Shown here: piece after piece, positions 18,112-43,514 of the stretch | How positions within the stretch are numbered: the stretch's first letter is position 1 | How the letters are laid out: each line of letters opens with the position of its first letter | Virus record (IMG/VR): IMGVR_UViG_3300028048_003198 | Location: 5,903-69,902 of that record | Strand: one strand, 5' to 3' | From: a virus | Taxonomy: Duplodnaviria > Caudoviricetes | DNA length: 64,000 bases | Position numbers and translations under genes: made by a program | Notes under the pieces: generated by a model | What the model was told of the DNA's origin: nothing | Databases searched by the model: none | The model's input: the letters and a program-made list of their open reading frames with translations, nothing else

Positions 18112-20712
18112 ATGGCTAAGCCTCGCATACCGAACCAGAAGAAGCAGTATCGAATGCTTGATAGACGCTTGGCGGCTTATATGGCCGCCGTGCGTCGTAT
18201 TTATGCGGAACTGAGTAGCGAGGCAGCGAAGATAGTCACATCCTCCGGCTACGATGGCAAGAAGCCGTTTTCGTGGCGCGACTACCCGAATACGAAAGCA
18301 CGTATGCGTAAGTTGCAGGAACGTTTCGTGAGTCAGTTGAGCGGCCTGATCATGTCTGGCACATCTGATGAGTGGAAGCGAAGCAACCTGCAGCAGGATT
18401 TGATCGTTAACCGAGTGCTCAAGGCGTACCATACGAGCAGAGATGATGGAAAGAATGAGAAATACTATCGTAATAACGAAGAAGCACTCAAGGCATTCCA
18501 GACGCGCAAAGAGCAAGGAATGAATATCTCTAATAAGTTATGGGACCAGTCTCAAGCATATCGAGAGGAGTTGCAGGATGTGATATCGGTGGCTATTGAG
18601 CGCGGAACTGATGCTGTCACGTTGAGTAAGCAGATCAGTAAGTATCTGCGAGATTTTCCATCTATGCAACGTGACTACAAAGATAAGTACGGCCGTGCGT
18701 CAAAGGCGCAGAACTGCGAGTTCCGATCTATACGCCTGGCGCGTTCTGAAATCAATATGGCTTACCGGAGTGCCGAGCAGGAACGATGGCGCCAACTCGA
18801 TTTTGTCGTTGGCTATGAGATTAAGATGTCTGGTGCACATCCGGCACACGATGTATGTGACAGTCTCGCAGGCAAATATCCGAAAGATTTTCGGTGGGTA
18901 GGATGGCACCCGAATTGCATGTGTTACGAAATCCCGATCCTTAAAACAGAGGACGAGTTTTACGGAGAATCGAAGCAAGTTCAGCCCGAGATAAAAGGTA
19001 AGGTTGATAGCGAAAAGGTCGAAAGCAAACTTGAGGGGAAGTCGTTTATGTTTGAAACGTCGGAGGTGTTCAAATACGAACTCCATCCGGAAGACCGCGA
19101 GGCTGTAGAGAGTTTTGCAGATCGTCTCGGTAGGTTCAATCCGAAGGGCGAGGTTATGAGTTTCAGTATAGACGATGTTGTACAGACGCAACAGTATGTC
19201 GGTACAAAAAACGTGATCCAGATAGCGCAGTCTATCGAGAAAGATGGTTTGCAGGATAATCCTACTGGTATCAAGGTTGGCGATAAGGTGTTTATCGTTG
19301 ATGGTCACAACCGCATAGCCGCTATGCGCCTTGGTGGCTCGAATACGTTTGATATTCGCGTCGTAGAGGTCAGCGAGGAAGAATGGAAAGCTGCAGGCGG
19401 TCAAGTTCCGGCCGGAGGATTCGAGAGCAAGCAGCGCATAGGATCCTCATCCATAAATGAGGTGCATGATGTGCCGCAGGAGTTTAAGGACTGGTGTACC
19501 GAAAACTGGCAGCGCATCGAAAACTCGCGACATAATGATACGCTTCCGTATTTCCTGTCTGATAATAGGCAGTACGTTAAAGAACAGTTAACGATAGAGC
19601 GTGCGACCGAATTGCGCCATGCTAATCGTGATGAGAAAGCAATCCTGCACGCATGGGAGAATAGACAGGCACTAAAACAGAATTACGGTGTTTCTCTTCC
19701 GAACCTGCGTCGTAAGGCTGAGTATTGGGGAGTTGATACGTCGGCGCTTGATGAGTATGTATATTCCGGTCGTTTGCATCTTGACGAATATGGAGAGGAT
19801 GAGAGATTGGATGCGCTCATGACAAATATAGCAGCCGAAGTAAGCGTTAAGGCTGAGACTGCAAGAAGTCGCTTCGATAGAGTTCGCAAACTCAGAACCG
19901 AACTAAATGCCGCTAAGGGAGCATATCACTTTGATGATATTATTGCCGAATTGGATAAATATCTTGCAGAGCACAATCCGAGAGCAGGAGAAATGGTTTA
20001 CGGCTCAAGGTATGAAGCGACAAAGGTTGGTGATATTAGTGAGTTTATTCGTCAGCAGCAGCAACGCATTGAAAAGAGGCGCGATGTGCTTCATAGTGTC
20101 AACGAGTCTCTTATATCGTCGAAACTTGGTGTAGAGAAAATGGTTCCTATGAGTTTCGAGGAAGCAGATGAGTTGCGTGGTAATCCGATGTTCTTATCTG
20201 GACTTGACGAGTACACATGTAACTGCCAAAGTTGCGTAGTCGCTAACGAATTGAGAAGACGTGGGTATGATGTGGAGGCAAAGCCTAATTATGCTATTCC
20301 GCACAGTCCGCAATTTATTTTGTCGTTCGATACTCGAAGCATATGGGTAGACAGAAAGACTGGATTACCGCCAGTTGCAGAAAGGATATCCTTGAGGGGA
20401 ATTGATGATGTTGAACTTGCCAACGCCATCATGGATAAGATTAAAACGCAAGGTCGGTATAATCTGTCGGTCACATGGGAGAAACCGAATAAGAACGGCG
20501 AGAAGTATGGTCACGTGTTTACGATCGAGAGAAAACGTAATGGCACGATTTTTGCATATGATCCACAGACAGGCGAAATGGATAGAGTTGATTACTCGCT
20601 TCTGCTTGAATATCTGCTTCAAGTCGACAGAAGCCGCTCTGTTGTTTTGTACCGAATAGACAACTGCGATGTCAATACGCAGTATTTGGATAAAATTGTA
20701 AAGAAGAAATAA
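18112..20712 (+). CDS. MuF/SPP1 gp7-like head morphogenesis protein fused to a ParB/Srx-like domain and a papain-fold toxin domain
   Basis: RLARSEINMAY...CDSLAGKYPK.F.WVGWHPNCMC (MuF); VFIVDGHNRIAA (ParB-like); NCQSCVVANELRRRGYDVEA...GHVF (Tox-PL-like). Confidence 0.8.
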   Translation: MAKPRIPNQKKQYRMLDRRLAAYMAAVRRIYAELSSEAAKIVTSSGYDGKKPFSWRDYPNTKARMRKLQERFVSQLSGLIMSGTSDEWKRSNLQQDLIVNRVLKAYHTSRDDGKNEKYYRNNEEALKAFQTRKEQGMNISNKLWDQSQAYREELQDVISVAIERGTDAVTLSKQISKYLRDFPSMQRDYKDKYGRASKAQNCEFRSIRLARSEINMAYRSAEQERWRQLDFVVGYEIKMSGAHPAHDVCDSLAGKYPKDFRWVGWHPNCMCYEIPILKTEDEFYGESKQVQPEIKGKVDSEKVESKLEGKSFMFETSEVFKYELHPEDREAVESFADRLGRFNPKGEVMSFSIDDVVQTQQYVGTKNVIQIAQSIEKDGLQDNPTGIKVGDKVFIVDGHNRIAAMRLGGSNTFDIRVVEVSEEEWKAAGGQVPAGGFESKQRIGSSSINEVHDVPQEFKDWCTENWQRIENSRHNDTLPYFLSDNRQYVKEQLTIERATELRHANRDEKAILHAWENRQALKQNYGVSLPNLRRKAEYWGVDTSALDEYVYSGRLHLDEYGEDERLDALMTNIAAEVSVKAETARSRFDRVRKLRTELNAAKGAYHFDDIIAELDKYLAEHNPRAGEMVYGSRYEATKVGDISEFIRQQQQRIEKRRDVLHSVNESLISSKLGVEKMVPMSFEEADELRGNPMFLSGLDEYTCNCQSCVVANELRRRGYDVEAKPNYAIPHSPQFILSFDTRSIWVDRKTGLPPVAERISLRGIDDVELANAIMDKIKTQGRYNLSVTWEKPNKNGEKYGHVFTIERKRNGTIFAYDPQTGEMDRVDYSLLLEYLLQVDRSRSVVLYRIDNCDVNTQYLDKIVKKK

Positions 20713-23878: not shown

Positions 23879-23912
23879 TGTTTGGTAATTAAACAAAAAA
23901 GTTGTACCTTTG
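23879..23912 (+). promoter_or_regulatory. promoter with a degenerate operator (TGTTTGGTAATTAAACA)
   Basis: TTTG 23881-23884, 20-nt spacer, TACCTTTG 23905-23912; ATG only 4 nt downstream, so probably leaderless. Confidence 0.75.
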
Positions 23913-23916
23913 CAGC

Positions 23917-24363
23917 ATGAAAATTTTTACGTCGTATTTCGGCAACGTTGCAACGCTCAAGAAATGTGGTGTTCACCCTATCAGCATAGCGCGTTGGTCG
24001 CCGAGAGGTTGGGACGGTGACAGATTGACTTGGTTGGCTCCTACGGTCTATATGCTAAAGGAAGCATCTCACGAAGAGTACGTGAGGATGTATCAGGATA
24101 TCTGTCGAGGTGTGAACATTGAATGGCTTATTCGTCAACTGAGCATGATGGCTGGTGGAAAGGATGTAGCGCTTCTGTGCTATGAGCGTCCAAATGAGTT
24201 CTGTCATCGCCACATGCTTGCTGAGTACCTTACCGACCACGGAATTAAAGTCACAGAGTTTAATGAGTGGGAGTACGTTCAGCAGCAGGCCCAGGCGCAA
24301 TCGGCGGCTCCAACACCTCCACCGCCGGAGCGCAAGGAGCCTGAACAGTTGACCTTGTTTTAG
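23917..24363 (+). CDS. DUF488-family protein
   Basis: MKIFTSYFGN...ISIARWSP...LAPT...LLCYERPNEFCHRH. Confidence 0.7.
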   Translation: MKIFTSYFGNVATLKKCGVHPISIARWSPRGWDGDRLTWLAPTVYMLKEASHEEYVRMYQDICRGVNIEWLIRQLSMMAGGKDVALLCYERPNEFCHRHMLAEYLTDHGIKVTEFNEWEYVQQQAQAQSAAPTPPPPERKEPEQLTLF

Positions 24364-24441
24364 TCGAGGCGCATATCGGCTAACAGAGTGTGCGATCAAA
24401 ATACTTTCATAGAGAGATATAGGGCGATGCGCCGCCCGTCT

Positions 24442-24512
24442 GCGCGAACAGCATGGCGAACATGCGCTTACCTGCCGGGTAGGAGATGTGGGTTTAACTC
24501 CTGCTTCGCGCT
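24442..24512 (+). tRNA. divergent tRNA-Gly(GCC)-like element
   Basis: Acceptor GCGCGAA/TTCGCGC, D arm GCAT/ATGC, anticodon arm CTTAC-CTGCCGG-GTAGG, T arm GTGGG-TTTAACT-CCTGC, U73; non-canonical C8, D loop and T loop; no encoded CCA. Confidence 0.65.
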
Positions 24513-24598
24513 CAAGTCACGAGGCGCATCTTGTGAATAAGTAGTATCTGATTGAAATAGTATATGGGTGGAGGCAATGCGCTGCCGAAGCCCTATCT

Positions 24599-24671
24599 GC
24601 GGGGAAAGCATGACGAAACATGCGCGTCTCACACCCGAGACGAGAAGTTGGTGGAAGTCCAACTCCCCGCT
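24599..24671 (+). ncRNA. second tRNA-like cloverleaf with an aberrant anticodon loop
   Basis: Acceptor GCGGGGA/TCCCCGC, D arm GCATG-ACGAAA-CATGC, stem CGTCTC-ACACCC-GAGACG, T arm GTTGG-TGGAAGT-CCAAC, U73. Confidence 0.55.
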
Positions 24672-24686
24672 CTATTTTGAACAGAT

Positions 24687-26723
24687 ATGGAATTAGAACT
24701 TTTGCAAAGAACTTTCGGACTGGAGATAGAACTCTCCGATATGGATAAGTCGCAGGTAAAAATGCCGAGCGGCTATTCTTGGGATGAAGAAGAGGTTATC
24801 CATAATACGAACGGCACACGTGGTACCGTGACCTATCGCTATGGTGGTGAGATAAATACGCCTCCGCTGCTTCCGACCGAAGAGAGTTATGCCGAACTCC
24901 GATCCATCCTTGAGAGTTGCAAAGCAGCCGGAGCCATCGCGCGTCGCGACTGCGGTCTGCAAGTACACATCTATATCGGCGATCTGACAGTAGAAGAGGT
25001 AAAGCGTATCTATGCGCTTAGTTACTATTGTACGGATGTGCTCAAGCAGATTTGCTACCTGCCTCCGTATAGCGATGATCAGCGCTATCGCCCGGCACCG
25101 ACTATGGATATCTTCGAGCGCGCTATGCAGGCTGATAGTTTCGATGCTATGCGCCGTGTCTTTGAAAACTCCCAGAATAAAGGCTACGTCCGTCATTTTG
25201 TCAATGTAGCATCGTATTTCGTACGCAAGACGGTTGAGTTCCGTCTGTTCAATACGACTACAGACTGGGATGAGATGCAAGCCTGCATCGAGTTCGCGTA
25301 TCGCTTCGTGGATTACGCGCTTACGCACACGCTGGATGACTTTAAGTCTCTTTGTACCAGTGAAGTGTTTGAATATCAAACAAAAGTGCCGACAAACCTG
25401 CCGAAGCTGCCGGATTCTCTGATCTTCTTTAGCAGCGTTCGGGATATGGATAAAGGTATCACGATGCACGAGCAGGTGGACCTGAGCAGTTATTTCGTGA
25501 ACATGCTGTGCGAAAACAGCGGTCAAGAGATCGTCTGCGTCAATCCTCATATGTACTCACTTGAGACGAAGTTGAGCGCCTATAAGAAGATCGTTCTGTA
25601 TGTGAATGACGGTTTCCATCACACATTGTATAGAATAGTGCGCGAGGGCGTGCGCATATGCTATACAGGAAAAGCGGAGTTCTTGCAGGGCTTCAATGCG
25701 GACGATCCGGTTAAGCAGGTTGCGTGTCTGATGGTGTTCCATCGCATACGCAAGTTCCTGCGTGATGGCGAGTATTACGAGCAACGCCTCCAGTCGTACA
25801 AGGAGAGTCTGGTTTCGACGATGGAGAATGCGTATAGCGCATCAGAGCGCTTGGTTAAGATGCTTTCCGAAGCAGAGTACCACGTAGGCACACTGAACGA
25901 CGCTATAGCACGCGGTGGCGATATTTTCTTCCAGTTCGATGACTATTCGAAATACCGCAGTACGTTCAATTCTTTGCGCGAAAACTCGGATTTTGACGAG
26001 CAGTACGAGCGCATGGAAACAAACTATTACGAGGTGCAGAATAATCTGCCTAAAGGCACGAAATTGATGCTTGTGAGCACGTTCCCCTATCATAACATGG
26101 AGAAGATAGGAAAGATAGGCAGCAAGATCTTCTACTCGACGCAGCGCGCAAAGAGCGGAGTTATTCAGGATAGCAAGAAACCCGAGTTCCTGACATTCAA
26201 GGAGCCGCCCGATGATCTGGTTATCGATGATCCCGATAGACTGCATATTTGCAATGTAAAGAGCGGCGAACTGCTGAAAGCACAGAAGCAGTACGTAGTC
26301 AAGGTGGAGAAAGTGAGCGGATGCCGATTCGGCTACTTTGTGTTCTACGATGATTACCTGCTTGGTGGCTTCGGCTTCGACTATCCGAAAAACCAAGCGT
26401 ACGATATTTGGCTGCTGTCTGATTTCTCGACTAACAACCGCGTGCCGCGTCTGTCGAAACTCATCCTTTTATGCGTGAAGAGCGCGATGGTAAGACGTTC
26501 GCTATGCCGAAAGATGAGCAACGTAATCAATACGTGTTATACGAAAGTATATACGCATGAGCCTGTAAGTAGTAAGTATCGTGGTCCGTTCAAGAAAGTC
26601 AGCAGAGAGTCCAATCACCTGTTGTACGAAACGACACTCGGAACATTGGGTGGCAAGGATGAGATTATTGCGAAGTATAAACAAATCATAAACAATATGA
26701 ATCATGAGCAAAACAAATCCTAA
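24687..26723 (+). CDS. amidoligase (COOH-NH2 ligase) domain fused to an unassigned ~430-aa C-terminal region
   Basis: RTFGLEIE, GGEINTP, CGLQVHI, TVEFRLFNTT motifs in the N-terminal ~240 aa. Confidence 0.8.
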   Translation: MELELLQRTFGLEIELSDMDKSQVKMPSGYSWDEEEVIHNTNGTRGTVTYRYGGEINTPPLLPTEESYAELRSILESCKAAGAIARRDCGLQVHIYIGDLTVEEVKRIYALSYYCTDVLKQICYLPPYSDDQRYRPAPTMDIFERAMQADSFDAMRRVFENSQNKGYVRHFVNVASYFVRKTVEFRLFNTTTDWDEMQACIEFAYRFVDYALTHTLDDFKSLCTSEVFEYQTKVPTNLPKLPDSLIFFSSVRDMDKGITMHEQVDLSSYFVNMLCENSGQEIVCVNPHMYSLETKLSAYKKIVLYVNDGFHHTLYRIVREGVRICYTGKAEFLQGFNADDPVKQVACLMVFHRIRKFLRDGEYYEQRLQSYKESLVSTMENAYSASERLVKMLSEAEYHVGTLNDAIARGGDIFFQFDDYSKYRSTFNSLRENSDFDEQYERMETNYYEVQNNLPKGTKLMLVSTFPYHNMEKIGKIGSKIFYSTQRAKSGVIQDSKKPEFLTFKEPPDDLVIDDPDRLHICNVKSGELLKAQKQYVVKVEKVSGCRFGYFVFYDDYLLGGFGFDYPKNQAYDIWLLSDFSTNNRVPRLSKLILLCVKSAMVRRSLCRKMSNVINTCYTKVYTHEPVSSKYRGPFKKVSRESNHLLYETTLGTLGGKDEIIAKYKQIINNMNHEQNKS

Positions 26724-27426
26724 AGAGAGTCAAGTAGCGCCTCGGAAATGGAAGATCGCGGAAGTCGAAGTCACTCAGTTGGTAGAGACGGAGGTTAACG
26801 CGAATGAGATGACAGATGAGGAATACCAGCGCCTTGTAGAGAATGTCCGCATAACAGGTGGATTGAGCAGCGCGATATCGTGCTATCAGCGCGAGAGCGA
26901 TGGTAAGTTTGTCATCATCAATGGCAATCACCGCTTACGCGCTGCTATCGAGAATCGCCTGCGCGTCGTGCCTATCGTCTATGCAGACGAAAGCATGATG
27001 TCGAAAGACGAGAAGTTGGCTTTGCAGATTTCGCATAACTCGCTGCACGGAAGCCACAATCGCAGTATTTTGAAGCGCTTGTTTGATGAGATTCAGTCGA
27101 TCGATTTTAAGCAGGCTGCATTCATCGACGTTAGCGAGATAGAGCCGATCGACACATCCGGCGTAGGTTTTACGATGGAGAGCGAGCACTATTCCGTATC
27201 GCTTGTGCTGTACAGGAAAGACTTTGATCTGCTGAAAGACCTGCTTGGAGTGGTTGCGGAGAAGCAGCCTGTATCTGATCTGGTGATGCTGGCCGACGGA
27301 AAAGAGAATGAGGACGAGTATCTTAAACTGCTGTCCGCTATCCGTCAAAAGTACGATATACGTAGTGTGAACATCGCTTTCTCAAAGATTCTTGAGTTGG
27401 CAAAAAAACAGATGGCAAATGAATAA
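26704..27426 (+). CDS. ParB/Srx N-terminal domain protein
   Basis: NANEM...YQRLVENV...FVIINGNHRLRAA. Confidence 0.85.
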   Translation: MSKTNPKESQVAPRKWKIAEVEVTQLVETEVNANEMTDEEYQRLVENVRITGGLSSAISCYQRESDGKFVIINGNHRLRAAIENRLRVVPIVYADESMMSKDEKLALQISHNSLHGSHNRSILKRLFDEIQSIDFKQAAFIDVSEIEPIDTSGVGFTMESEHYSVSLVLYRKDFDLLKDLLGVVAEKQPVSDLVMLADGKENEDEYLKLLSAIRQKYDIRSVNIAFSKILELAKKQMANE

Positions 27427-28729
27427 GGTTACTATTGGTATATTGAGGGAAACGAAAATCCCAGTTGACAATCGCGTGCCGTTTACGCCCACGTCTATTG
27501 CTCGGATAAAGGAGTTATATCCGAACATCCGTTTTGTCGTAGAGTCGAGCGATGTACGCGCTTTTAAGGACGCAGAATACGAGGCTGTAGGCTGCGAGAT
27601 AGTTCGCGATCTGGTACCGTCTGCGTGCGACTTGATGTTTGGTGTTAAGGAGGTAGCCTTGGATCACCTGCATCCGTATGGTCATTATGTCTTCTTCTCG
27701 CATATCGCCAAGGAGCAGCCGTACAATCGTGAGTTGGCAAACCGTATGCACGAGTTAGGCATCACGCTTACCGATTATGAGTACCTTGTTAACCACGAGG
27801 GCAAGCGTATCGTTGCGTTCGGCTTCTGGGCTGGTGTGGTAGGTTGCTATAACACGCTGAGGCTTGCAGGCTTGAAGAGCAGAAAGTATACTCTGCCGGA
27901 AGCCAATCCGGACACGTTCACTCTTGACGAACTCGAAAAGGCTATCAAGGAGAATGCCAAGGCAATCAGAGAATCGCACATGCGCATCCTGATCACCGGA
28001 ACTGGTAATGTGTCCGAGGGCGCTCAATACGTACTGCATCAATTAGTAGGCATGATTAGCGTGCATGTAGATGTATTCAAGCATGTAGTTGACAGATTTG
28101 GCTCGTACTATGCTGTTGCCGGAACGAAAGACCTTGTGAAGAGTAAGTTCGGCGATGGCTATAAGCGTGAGTCGTTCCACTCACACCCAGAGCGGTACTG
28201 CAGCCGCTTCGATGAGTTTGCACCGAAGACAGATGTTCTGATCTGCTGTCATTCGTGGGAGCCTGGTATGCCGGAGTATCTTACGCCTGAACTTGCGTTC
28301 AGCGATAAGAGCGCCATCAAGATAGTCGGCGATATCACCTGCGATATCCGTGGAAGCATCTGCACTACGCTCCGGCCGTCCACACACGATGATCCGTTCT
28401 ATGGAGTACGAATGGAGAAAACAGTAAGACACACAGAAGGTGGTCTGGTCGAGGAAGAGCGTCGCCGCTTGGAAGAGTGTGCGGCATGGTGCCCTGACTG
28501 TATATCCGTGATGGCCGTCGATACGTGCCCGAACGCGATACCGAGAGAGTCAAGCGAAGATTTCTCGCATCAACTGGAGATGAGTATCGTGACATGGATG
28601 GCGCACAAGAATGATCCGGAGAATCCGTGCCGTTACGCGCAACAGCAGATAGATGACGCTACGATCTTACGCGAGGGTGTGGTAACGGAGAAATTCGCAT
28701 ATCTGGAGGACTTTGTATATAATGGCTAA
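27419..28729 (+). CDS. saccharopine dehydrogenase / lysine-ketoglutarate reductase-like oxidoreductase (AlaDh/PNT family)
   Basis: IGILRETK.P.DNRVP, GVKEV, FFSHIAKEQPYN, DYE, GFWAGVVG, GTGNVSEGA, DITCD..GSI, MAVDTCP. Confidence 0.88.
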   Translation: MNKVTIGILRETKIPVDNRVPFTPTSIARIKELYPNIRFVVESSDVRAFKDAEYEAVGCEIVRDLVPSACDLMFGVKEVALDHLHPYGHYVFFSHIAKEQPYNRELANRMHELGITLTDYEYLVNHEGKRIVAFGFWAGVVGCYNTLRLAGLKSRKYTLPEANPDTFTLDELEKAIKENAKAIRESHMRILITGTGNVSEGAQYVLHQLVGMISVHVDVFKHVVDRFGSYYAVAGTKDLVKSKFGDGYKRESFHSHPERYCSRFDEFAPKTDVLICCHSWEPGMPEYLTPELAFSDKSAIKIVGDITCDIRGSICTTLRPSTHDDPFYGVRMEKTVRHTEGGLVEEERRRLEECAAWCPDCISVMAVDTCPNAIPRESSEDFSHQLEMSIVTWMAHKNDPENPCRYAQQQIDDATILREGVVTEKFAYLEDFVYNG

Positions 28730-29222
28730 GAAGAATACAGATAGTACTAAGACTAAGGCGGTAGGCAAAAAGCCTGCTGCCAAGTCTGCTGCATCCAAGC
28801 CGAAAGCAAAGCGTAGGGAAACACCCGAACAGTTAGCAAAGCGCAAAGAGAAAGAGAGAAAGACAGTTGAAGCGCGCATCGCAGAGCAGAAGAAGTTGTT
28901 TCTGTCTATCTTCGAGAAGAAAGGTGGTAACCCTACATCATCGTGCATAGCTGCAGGCATAGGTCGCTCCACGTATTACGCATGGCTCGAAAGCGATAAA
29001 GAGTTTGCTGAGGCCGTGCATAATGTCAAGGAGTCGCTGATAGATATGGCAGAGTCCAAGTTGCTTGAGAGTATTCAGGGCGGCAATCTGACTGCAACCA
29101 TTTTCTATTTGAAGACGCAGGGCAAAGATCGTGGATATGTAGAGCGCACCGAGCAGGATGTAAACGTGAACGAGTTCATGGACGCTATGCGTGGGCTACC
29201 TGATCCACCGGAAGAGGTGTAA
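28722..29222 (+). CDS. terS: terminase small subunit
   Basis: HTH (AGIGRSTYYAW), DMAESKLL...ATIFYLKTQGKDRGYVER; directly precedes terL. Confidence 0.8.
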   Translation: MAKKNTDSTKTKAVGKKPAAKSAASKPKAKRRETPEQLAKRKEKERKTVEARIAEQKKLFLSIFEKKGGNPTSSCIAAGIGRSTYYAWLESDKEFAEAVHNVKESLIDMAESKLLESIQGGNLTATIFYLKTQGKDRGYVERTEQDVNVNEFMDAMRGLPDPPEEV

Positions 29223-29230
29223 AATGAGCA

Positions 29231-30751
29231 ATGGACGAACGACAGAAACTAAGAGCATGGATGAAGATTTGGCGAAAGGATTGGTGTCTCTTCGCCGAAC
29301 AGGTCTTGCATGCCAATTTGGATGATGAGCAGAAAGAGGTTCTGCGTTCGGTTCAGTATAACAGTCGTACGGCGGTAGCATCCGGTACATCGCGAGGAAA
29401 AGATTTCGTAGCAGCCGTTTGCGCCTTGTGCTTTCTCTACCTCACACCTCGATTCGATGAAAAAGGCAAGTTGGTGTCTAACACGAAAGTAGCGCTTACG
29501 GCACCGACAGATCGTCAGGTAGGCAATATCATGGTGCCGGAGTTCACGCGCCTATTCAAGGCTGCGAAGATACTGCCCGGCCGACTTGTAGCATACGACA
29601 TCCGTACCTCTCATAAAGAGTGGTTCTTGACAGGCTTTAAGGCTGGTGATGACGATACGGAAGCATGGTCCGGTTTCCACGCAGCCAATACGATGTTTGT
29701 CGTAACGGAGGCATCCGGTATATCCGAAAAGACGTTCGACGCTATTGAGGGTAACCTGCAGGGTAACTCGCGGCTGCTGATCGTGTTTAACCCGAATACT
29801 ACAACAGGCTATGCCGCGAAAGCGATGAAGTCAAGCCGTTTCGCCAAATTCCGTCTGAACTCGCTGAATGCTGCCAATGTGGTTGCGAAGAAAATCATCT
29901 ATCCGGGCCAAGTTGATTACGAGTGGGTGAAAGATAAGGTGGAAAACTGGTGCAGCAAGATTAAGATGACGGATATCGACGAGGGAGAAGGAGATTTTGA
30001 GTTTGAGGGGCAATGGTATCGCCCGAATGATCTTTTCCGTATTAAGGTACTTGGTAAGTTCCCGAAAGCAAGCCATGATGCCCTCATTCCGCAAGAGTGG
30101 ATCGAACTCGCGAACGAGCGATGGAAGAAACTCGTTGCTCAAGAGAATTTCGAGCATATCCGCATGTGTCGTTTGGGTGTCGATGTTGCAGGTATGGGTC
30201 GCGATAGCAGCGTGCTCTGTCCCCGGTATGGCAACTTTGTGGATGAGTTCGAGGTTCATCAGTCAGCAGGTAAAGCGGATCACATGCACGTAGCAGGCAT
30301 GATTGCGCGATATCTGCATTATGATAAATCTAAAGCGTTTATAGATACCATCGGTGAGGGTGCAGGCGTGTACTCGGCTCTTCTGGAAAAAGGCTTCCGC
30401 AATGGTTTCTCGTGTAAATTCTCGGAGAGTGCCAAGGACTTGAGCGATCTGACGGAGCAGTATGAGTTCGCGAACATGAAAGCGTATCTGTACTGGGCCG
30501 TGCGTGATTGGCTTGATCCGAAGAATGGTTTTGAGCCTGCGCTGCCGGAGTGTGACGAACTGATGGAAGAGGCTACCGAGATCAAGTGGCACTTCCAATC
30601 GAGCGGAGCGATAGCGATAGAGAAGAAAGAGGATATCATCAAGCGCCTCGGACGCTCTACTGACTATTTCGATGCGCTGGCCAATACGTTCTATCCCAAT
30701 GACGAGTCGATCCCGTTGGAGGACTTGGAGGCGTTCATAAATGGGCGATAA
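29231..30751 (+). CDS. terL: terminase large subunit
   Basis: SGTSRGKD Walker A, FVVTEASG Walker B, GVDVAGMGRD and DYFDALA nuclease acidic residues. Confidence 0.9.
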   Translation: MDERQKLRAWMKIWRKDWCLFAEQVLHANLDDEQKEVLRSVQYNSRTAVASGTSRGKDFVAAVCALCFLYLTPRFDEKGKLVSNTKVALTAPTDRQVGNIMVPEFTRLFKAAKILPGRLVAYDIRTSHKEWFLTGFKAGDDDTEAWSGFHAANTMFVVTEASGISEKTFDAIEGNLQGNSRLLIVFNPNTTTGYAAKAMKSSRFAKFRLNSLNAANVVAKKIIYPGQVDYEWVKDKVENWCSKIKMTDIDEGEGDFEFEGQWYRPNDLFRIKVLGKFPKASHDALIPQEWIELANERWKKLVAQENFEHIRMCRLGVDVAGMGRDSSVLCPRYGNFVDEFEVHQSAGKADHMHVAGMIARYLHYDKSKAFIDTIGEGAGVYSALLEKGFRNGFSCKFSESAKDLSDLTEQYEFANMKAYLYWAVRDWLDPKNGFEPALPECDELMEEATEIKWHFQSSGAIAIEKKEDIIKRLGRSTDYFDALANTFYPNDESIPLEDLEAFINGR

Positions 30752-42895: not shown

Positions 42896-42970
42896 AGCGC
42901 GATAGAGCAGCGGTAGCTCGCTGGATTCATCATCCGGAGGTCGCAGGTTCGAATCCTGCTCGCGCAACCA
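42896..42970 (+). tRNA. tRNA-Met(CAT), initiator-like
   Basis: A1:A72 mismatch, A11:U24, anticodon arm CTGGA-TTCATCA-TCCGG, GCAGG-TTCGAAT-CCTGC, encoded ACCA. Confidence 0.88.
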
Positions 42971-43047: not shown

Positions 43048-43440
43048 ATGAAGAAGGTTTTATTTGTAGCGTTAGGTGTCTTGTTTGCCCTCGCTATGTA
43101 TGCGGCACCGCCCACCGATGTAGGCAAGCCGCTGAGTGACCAAGTTCTGCTTGTGCAGGCTGAGGCTCAACCGATGGTAGCGGACTTCGTTTACGTGGAT
43201 TACTCCATCGAGACGATTGCGACTGCTTCCGAAACGAGTTACGAACTTTACGTGGCTATGCCCGCAGAGGTGCGCAACCAAGTGTTTGACTTGAAGATGC
43301 CAGTCTTCCGATTATGTAACCGGAGTTACGTGGCGATGAATAGTCAGATCACGATTCAGGAATTGGCCAGAAGAAACTTGCCTCCGAATCGCAAGGCTTT
43401 AGCCCGGAAGAGTCTCGATACTCCATATGAAGTAGGTTAG
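43048..43440 (+). CDS. hypothetical exported protein
   Basis: MKKVLFVALGVLFALAMYA signal peptide. Confidence 0.6.
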   Translation: MKKVLFVALGVLFALAMYAAPPTDVGKPLSDQVLLVQAEAQPMVADFVYVDYSIETIATASETSYELYVAMPAEVRNQVFDLKMPVFRLCNRSYVAMNSQITIQELARRNLPPNRKALARKSLDTPYEVG

Positions 43441-43514
43441 CACAGCGGTAGTGCGGGTGGTGAACTTGATTGGAATCCACAGGTCGCAGGTTCGAATCCT
43501 GCACCTACTCCCCA
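43431..43514 (+). pseudogene. tRNA-like element with an expanded (14-16 nt) anticodon loop
   Basis: AGTAGGT/ACCTACT acceptor, GCAC-AGCGGTA-GTGC D arm, 22 nt identical to the tRNA-Met variable and T arm. Confidence 0.65.

Follow-up and report, generated by a model that had tools for sequence, protein, structure and literature searches.

Glycine-type tRNA genes beside a GNAT-fusion gene in a phage operon: candidate glycyl donors for DNA hypermodification

Why should a gut phage keep two aberrant glycine-type tRNA genes directly in front of the gene for one large enzyme? The question is raised by a 69.9-kb IMG/VR provirus record, of which we analysed a continuous stretch of 64,000 nucleotides, hereafter the window. 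In the 323 nt between a DUF488-N3a gene and the gene for a 678-aa fusion protein there is no credible ORF; a previous examination of the letters and reading frames, the sequence-only reading, had placed there a tandem pair of tRNA-Gly-like RNAs that might be charged but kept from ribosomes, or might be decoys for anticodon nucleases. With the gene context, of which that reading made no use, the guess becomes a mechanism that can be tested. The genes run in the order N6 methylase, a 183-aa protein, DUF488-N3a, a leader element (E1), tRNA 1, a second leader element (E2), tRNA 2 and the fusion gene, followed by ParB_N, an AlaDh/PNT-family dehydrogenase and the two terminase subunits (Table 1). 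The window thus contains the PF22559 cassette layout, in which a GNAT domain is fused to a DAM-like domain and followed by ParB and terminase genes. In all close relatives DUF488 lies directly upstream of the tRNAs, and in relatives an octopine dehydrogenase and an ATP-grasp ligase stand in place of the AlaDh_PNT_N-family dehydrogenase. A promoter box precedes the DUF488 gene; between that gene and the fusion gene no Bacteroidetes-type box was seen by eye. An explanation of the tRNAs as a prophage end or integration site was rejected, because they are complete, lie inside the operon and are far from the ends of the record. Elsewhere in the window, the 866-aa product of positions 18112-20712 has at its C terminus a toxin domain of the papain-fold glutamine deamidase type (Pfam PF15644).

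Table 1. Features of the cassette, in window coordinates
Feature	Position	Strand	Basis or remark
TAnnTTTG-type promoter box	about 23903-23910		just upstream of the DUF488 gene
DUF488-N3a gene, first of the cassette	23917..24363	+	Pfam PF22751/PF04343; phrog_2450
E1 hairpin 1 (HP1)	24360..24383	+	8-bp stem including the DUF488 stop codon; loop with GCGCAU
E1 hairpin 2 (HP2)	24422..24437	+	GGGCG-AUGCGC-CGCCC; ends 4 nt before tRNA 1
tRNA 1, non-canonical tRNA-Gly(GCC)	24442..24512	+	ARAGORN, Rfam, covariance model R1
E2 hairpin 1 (HP1)	24517..24536	+	UCACGAG-GCGCAU-CUUGUGA; starts 5 nt after tRNA 1
E2 hairpin 2 (HP2)	24566..24593	+	two-tier stem, loop AUGCGC; ends 5 nt before tRNA 2
tRNA 2, tRNA-Gly-like RNA with ACC in an 8-nt anticodon loop	24599..24671	+	minimum-energy fold, R1, covariation
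Fusion protein, Amidoligase_2 + DAM-like-phage2 + GNAT-phage-like, 678 aa	24687..26723	+	Pfam
ParB_N-like protein	26704..27426	+	Pfam; PHROGs
AlaDh_PNT_N-family dehydrogenase, possible tailoring enzyme	27392..28729	+	Pfam
Terminase small subunit (TerS)	28713-29222	+	PHROGs
Terminase large subunit (TerL)	29231-30751	+	PHROGs

Both RNAs are cloverleaves with perfect 7-bp acceptor stems (GCGCGAA/UUCGCGC in tRNA 1 and GCGGGGA/UCCCCGC in tRNA 2) and related D arms, and both carry G1-C72, C2-G71, G3-C70, U73, C35 and C36. This is the identity set of the glycyl-tRNA synthetase GlyRS, whose reported determinants are G1-C72, the C2 pair, U73, C35 and C36 (PMC7826273). tRNA 1 has a normal 7-nt anticodon loop, CUGCCGG, with U33 and the anticodon GCC, but C8 in place of U8 and the T loop UUUAACU. 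tRNA 2 has A8, a 5-bp D stem closed by the loop ACGAAA without GG, the T loop UGGAAGU, and the anticodon arm CGUCU-CACACCCG-AGACG, which can be drawn with an 8-nt loop or with a 6-bp stem and a 6-nt loop. Every feature that the sequence-only reading had listed, including the missing U8 and TTC and the unusual loop of tRNA 2, was confirmed; its expectation that standard scanners might overlook both RNAs held for tRNA 2 but failed for tRNA 1. The latter is called tRNA-Gly(gcc) by ARAGORN and scores 34.3 bits against Rfam RF00005, above the gathering score of 29. tRNA 2 received no ARAGORN call and no RF00005 match, either at the 29-bit threshold or at E up to 10, and its sole Rfam match was Tymo_tRNA-like (17.9 bits, E 0.27). 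The minimum-energy fold of tRNA 2 is nonetheless a perfect cloverleaf (z = -4.67; none of 200 shuffles was as good), with z = -2.40 for tRNA 1, and a family-specific covariance model (R1) gave 83.5 bits for tRNA 1 and 78.3 bits for tRNA 2. Neither gene encodes CCA, the 3′ flanks after U73 reading CAAG and CUAU, respectively, and tRNA 2 ends 15 nt before the ATG of the fusion gene. ARAGORN made two further tRNA calls in the window, 18 kb away from this pair. At 43431-43512 it calls a tRNA-Ser whose anticodon, ACU, is unusual (Rfam 47.1 bits); a tRNA-Met lies close by at 42896-42970.

Relatives of the region were found through DUF488 protein clusters, which led to many gut-metagenome contigs of the same layout. 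A blastn search of the region against GenBank phages gave no match, a search for related loci with the DUF488 protein alone gave no relatives, and scans of IMG/VR and JGI metagenomes with motifs of the D arm and tRNA 2 returned only loci L025 and L010 plus chance matches. From the related loci we aligned 11 distinct variants (alignment A1; five of tRNA 2 and six of tRNA 1), from which R1 was built. The covariation check proposed by the sequence-only reading came out in favour of the cloverleaves: 97.4% of the cells pair, compared with 33-54% when the partners are slid as a control, and compensatory changes occur in 15 of the 21 pairs, values that none of 500 shuffles reached. For example, the tRNA 2 acceptor GCGGGGA/UCCCCGC is replaced by GCGCAAG/CUUGCGC, and compensatory changes in tRNA 2 extend over the acceptor, anticodon and T stems (L025, L045 and L010). 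In all 11 variants G1-C72, C2-G71, G3-C70, U73, C35 and C36 are invariant, as are G52-C62, G53-C61, U54 and A58. The tRNA 2 loop keeps ACC in a shifting frame (CACACCCG, CACACCUG, CAACCAG and CUACCGG), and the tRNA 1 anticodon is GCC, ACC, UCC or CCC, depending on the locus.

The tRNA 1 sequence is the same (100% identity) in the window and in L025 and L010, next to an adjoining gene at 79% and spacers at 72-85%. Between the window and L025, DUF488 is 79%, tRNA 1 100% and tRNA 2 96% identical; downstream in L025 are an octopine dehydrogenase, a fusion protein only 34% identical to that of the window, ParB and an ATP-grasp ligase, so that the tailoring enzymes differ. Because a nearly identical tRNA block stands beside fusions that share 34% identity, there is no co-evolution of the tRNAs with the enzyme, and the sequences suggest a recombination breakpoint right after tRNA 2 (the fusion gene in the window versus L025:3629-5704). 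A further variant was seen at L044:2913-3145, with a change of tRNA 1 to ACC, loss of the E1 hairpins and mismatches at four stem pairs of tRNA 2; here one copy may have begun to decay once its anticodon had passed to the other.

Each tRNA is preceded by a leader. The sequence-only reading had described a duplicated two-part unit with an element before each tRNA; the element is real, but it is better described as two hairpins, whose local stems covary. The HP1 loop GCGCAU is complementary to the HP2 loop AUGCGC, with 38-55 nt between the two hexamers. Counting the hexamer together with its complement, 306 nt hold six occurrences where 0.13-0.29 would be expected, and the paired layout was found nowhere else in the window. 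E1 HP1 folds in every variant, with compensatory stems CGA/UCG, CGG/CCG or GAUACU/AGUAUC. The E2 HP1 stem is CACGAG/CUUGUG, and in L044 and L081 an unrelated stem, GUGUACGG/CCGUACAC, surrounds the same loop; because MAFFT misaligned hairpin 1 of these two loci, the covariation of E2 HP1 was taken from separate folds and not from pair counts. The inner stem of E2 HP2 is GGCA/UGCC, GGGA/UCCC or GGAA/UUCC between loci, and in its alignment (A4) pair 72-81 is CG in three rows, GC in three and AU in two, and pair 66-87 is UA, UG or CG. Folded whole, E1 and E2 are no better than shuffles (z of -0.83 and +0.54), and only the local hairpins hold. From their complementarity, the HP1 and HP2 loops could kiss, or could pair over the longer range as the stem GGCGCAU/AUGCGCC, which the sequence-only reading had put forward. 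That stem was rejected as evidence, since it is invariant, carries no covariation information and has one mismatch in L047; the loop hexamers are invariant too, which leaves covariation silent on kissing as well. Hammerhead-like and HDV-like readings of the elements were dropped as well, since by eye their motifs are not conserved in relatives, and at E up to 10 no Rfam ribozyme, riboswitch or leader family matched them.

In other lineages different strong hairpins lie just upstream of the tRNA, and therefore a leader hairpin is general and the GCGCAU/AUGCGC module lineage-specific. Several of these hairpins, some 25-35 nt ahead of the tRNA, carry a conserved GAAAGA loop (L082, L086, L114, L132, L135 and L137-L161, upstream of the first tRNA) on stems that covary (GCG/CGC or GCUCG/CGAGC). 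The leaders most likely serve RNA processing or stability, and could, for instance, cap the 3′ end that RNase P leaves on the upstream RNA; no other part of our reading is as weak.

Is the association of glycine-type tRNAs with the fusion gene a peculiarity of this phage? Using as query an alignment of its GNAT domain with 40 homologues (A2), we collected loci of about 12 kb, 31 from species-representative genomes and 80 from viral contigs, and searched them for tRNAs with ARAGORN and R1. On the same strand as the GNAT match and 0.9-3.5 kb upstream of it, a Gly-type tRNA was found in 19 of the 28 species-representative genomes whose loci reach far enough upstream, and likewise in 61 of 79 viral contigs; the contigs were not dereplicated. 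In these loci ARAGORN found no tRNA outside the upstream slot, except for one tRNA-Thr downstream in L131. In a prophage of the actinomycetote Gleimia europaea (L092), tRNA-Gly(ACC) is followed by a DAM-like-phage1+GNAT fusion, ParB and TerL, and in a Bacillota contig (L093) tRNA-Gly(UCC) precedes the same DAM-like+GNAT fusion. This recurrence indicates that the conserved core is tRNA-Gly, DAM-like+GNAT, ParB and terminase, in that order. About one related cassette in three lacks the tRNA, which is therefore dispensable; the tRNA-less cassettes include L001-L005, whose fusions, at 47-49% identity, are the nearest relatives of the window's fusion that the related-locus search returned from viral contigs. 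Some cassettes have Lys, Asn, Met, Arg, Ser, Cys or Ile tRNAs in the slot, which may partly be a general tRNA site. One such case is a PRTRC-type element (Prok_Ub, Prok-E2, ThiF) at L059:3486-3821, and likewise L108 and L130, where tRNA-Lys(UUU), tRNA-Asn(GUU) and tRNA-Met(CAU), with no Gly-type tRNA, are located between DUF488 and the octopine-DH/amidoligase-GNAT genes; an unscored tRNA-like stretch lies between the Lys and Asn tRNAs.

The 61 distinct cassette tRNAs (alignment A3) reveal which features are kept. C2-G71 and G3-C70 are present in all 61, and G1-C72, U73 and an NCC anticodon in 60 each. Position 34 may be A, U, C or G, with ACC in about 22 of the 61. The anticodon loop has 7 nt in 49 tRNAs, 8 nt in six and 6 nt in six, and U33 is missing from 16 of the 49 loops of 7 nt. 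The T-loop triplet is TTC in 34, TGC in 15, TTT in eight, TGG in three and TCC in one, so that 27 are without TTC, and loss of the D-loop GG goes together with loss of TTC. Position 34, anticodon-loop length, U33, U8 and the D and T loops drift freely, and on four simple criteria only 16 of the 61 are canonical. The base after U73 is C in 61/61, and a full CCA is encoded in a handful (e.g., L065, L066, L073, L092 and L093). In a complete Muribaculaceae genome, the host tRNAGly(GCC) and tRNAGly(UCC) are canonical, and the cassette copies are an ACC variant with A33 and a UCC variant. Because the identity set is kept while decoding features drift, selection acts on what GlyRS reads and not on what the ribosome reads. 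Two near-identical cassette tRNAs, L116:3400-3471 and L114:3400-3471, differ by a change of C36 to U, with all other Gly features kept, and ARAGORN calls one of them Arg(UCU); either its identity has switched or the copy is dead.

What might the enzyme do with glycine? In Mu, the Mom protein moves glycine from Gly-tRNAGly to N6 of adenine in double-stranded DNA (Silva et al. 2026, PMC13219725), accepting all three E. coli tRNAGly isoacceptors and rejecting Gly-tRNAAla; tRNA genes beside Mom homologues are not mentioned in that paper, and our literature searches found no description of a linkage between tRNA-Gly and GNAT cassettes. An AF2 model of the GNAT domain (pLDDT 90.5) had Mu Mom (8bv8_A) as its top match in VIA-align (Z 11.2, rmsd 2.8 over 134 residues; the next match had Z 10.2). 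Foldseek returned generic GNATs, with Mom at rank 13 yet with the best query TM-score, 0.50. In hmmscan at E up to 10 the domain matches PF22559 only, and Mu Mom matches PF25680 (2e-75); hhalign of A2 against Mom found nothing. By sequence, therefore, the GNAT domain does not belong to the Mom family as defined by PF25680.

Taking these observations together, we think it fairly likely that the two RNAs are private glycyl donors for DNA hypermodification, poorly suited to the ribosome. Because relatives in three bacterial phyla keep the pairing of tRNA and enzyme, the phage probably supplies a glycine carrier of its own to serve a Mom-like enzyme and not protein synthesis. The cloverleaves, their conservation, the identity nucleotides, the linkage of the genes and the GNAT fold are direct observations; the steps from transcription to the DNA product are inferred from them. 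Several findings count against the reading: the cassettes that lack the tRNA, the other tRNAs that sometimes take its slot, the lack of co-evolution with the fusion, the assignment of the GNAT domain to PF22559 together with the narrow lead of Mom (about 1 Z unit) in the structural comparison, and a tRNA 1 that could still decode. The tRNA-Gly paralogues would have arisen by tandem duplication of a unit made of a two-hairpin leader and a tRNA. They would be co-transcribed with the late DNA-modification and packaging operon, excised by RNase P and 3′ processing enzymes, completed with CCA by the host and glycylated by the host GlyRS. The main role of both would then be to hand glycine, as private donors, to the GNAT domain of the fusion, which would place it on a DNA base, as in Mu Mom, and other enzymes of the operon would tailor the adduct. 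Because departures from the elongator design should make the RNAs poor substrates for the ribosome, and presumably for EF-Tu, DNA modification would not compete with translation. More tentatively, and with somewhat less than even confidence, we suggest a widespread class of private tRNAGly borne by mobile elements, selected for charging by host GlyRS and for exclusion from translation, and feeding Mom-like GNATs that build glycine-primed, peptide- or opine-like adducts on phage DNA, with the kissing-loop leaders of the present lineage controlling processing or hand-off. On this view each of the two paralogues may have a transfer step of its own.

Other explanations account for less of the pattern. 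The RNAs could be ordinary phage tRNAs that supplement the decoding of glycine codons late in infection, with the site before the packaging genes serving this group as a tRNA store. tRNA 1, with its regular GCC loop and U33, could indeed decode as well, 69% of the glycine codons of the phage are GGC or GGU, and the tRNAs for other amino acids in the same slot of other elements would fit a store. We nevertheless regard this as unlikely: position 34 is unconserved, in contrast to C35, C36 and the identity set of the acceptor, 28 of the 61 anticodon loops have the wrong length or lack U33, the Gly bias holds across three phyla and always beside the GNAT gene, and the window's other ARAGORN tRNAs stand well apart from the pair. 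The frequency of ACC among the cassette tRNAs also argues against decoding, this being, to our knowledge, not a normal bacterial glycine anticodon. A special form of decoding was considered for tRNA 2, whose 8-nt anticodon loop in a tRNAGly frame, with other 8-nt versions in relatives, recalls the classical sufD suppressor, a tRNAGly with an extra anticodon-loop base. A +1 frameshift suppressor serving a programmed frameshift in a phage gene is very improbable, however, as the extra base is unconserved (homologues have 7-nt loops such as CUACCGG and CAACCAG, or 6-nt loops), position 37 is a pyrimidine, and no matching frameshift site was noted.

We give little credence to an anti-defence role, in which the RNAs would be decoys or replacements for host tRNAGly hit by tRNA-targeting toxins. 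Altered loops could evade or soak up such toxins, and AtaT2 (PMC7470980) and FaRel2 (PMC11559606) are reported examples of tRNAGly-specific ones. The attackers could be GNAT toxins acetylating Gly-tRNAGly, toxSAS (FaRel2, for example) or anticodon nucleases, although we know of none of the last that is specific for tRNAGly. This role explains neither the linkage to the DAM-like/GNAT gene in unrelated hosts nor the persistence of GlyRS identity amid decaying decoding features. The comparative evidence as a whole (the identity set in 60-61 of 61 tRNAs, the drift of decoding features and the linkage across phyla) favours the earlier proposal of RNAs that are charged but kept from ribosomes, and it lifts the accompanying decoy alternative nowhere above a possibility. 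It is likewise doubtful that the RNAs are purely cis-acting, tRNA-like signals at which RNase P and RNase Z cut the late transcript between DUF488 and the fusion gene, with no aminoacylation. Their place inside an operon in which inspection by eye showed no internal promoter, the short distance from tRNA 2 to the ATG, and the hairpins at the ends of the predicted cleavage products are in keeping with this idea, but punctuation needs the tRNA shape only and leaves the near-universal U73, C35, C36 and three acceptor pairs unexplained. A processing signal can, moreover, coexist with a role as glycyl donor.

If the glycyl-donor reading is true, tRNA-dependent aminoacylation of DNA would be a broad strategy and not an oddity of Mu, and the cassette RNAs would be a second, independent case of non-proteogenic tRNAs after those of the staphylococcal cell wall. 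Some of the odd or unscored tRNAs of phages would then have jobs outside translation, and a Gly-type tRNA followed by a DAM-like/GNAT gene, ParB and terminase would be a genomic marker for new DNA hypermodifications.

Among known systems, the use of charged tRNA by Mom for DNA modification was shown only in 2026 (PMC13219725). Like Mom, the fusion would be a late-expressed phage enzyme that modifies DNA through a GNAT fold, with tRNAGly as the implied co-substrate here. Mu has no tRNA gene and scavenges host tRNAGly, whereas the cassette has aberrant tRNAGly genes of its own; its GNAT domain is of the PF22559 type, is fused to DAM-like and amidoligase domains, and travels with ParB and amino-acid-tailoring enzymes. 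Ordinary phage tRNAs (RF00005) are likewise cloverleaf genes in a phage genome, and tRNA 1 passes both scanners; tRNA 2 fails both, and the cassette tRNAs differ from ordinary ones in being selected for synthetase identity over decoding and in occupying a fixed place beside one enzyme gene. The staphylococcal tRNAGly NP1-3, used by FmhB, FemA and FemB (PMC7826273), are also extra paralogues that keep the GlyRS determinants and have altered D and T loops. They feed a non-ribosomal glycyl transferase and, with TGC or TGT in place of TTC, bind EF-Tu weakly. The staphylococcal genes are chromosomal, part of a staphylococcal lineage and devoted to peptidoglycan through Fem-family transferases; those described here are borne by phages or mobile elements, are of separate origin, have DNA as their presumed acceptor and are more aberrant, with 8- or 6-nt loops, residues other than U33, and ACC. 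Compared with the staphylococcal UGY T-loop, tRNA 2 has UGG together with a D loop without GG, tRNA 1 has UUU, and UGC is found in 15 of the 61 relatives; judged from these sequences, the T-loop change is an analogous departure from the elongator design and not the same sequence.
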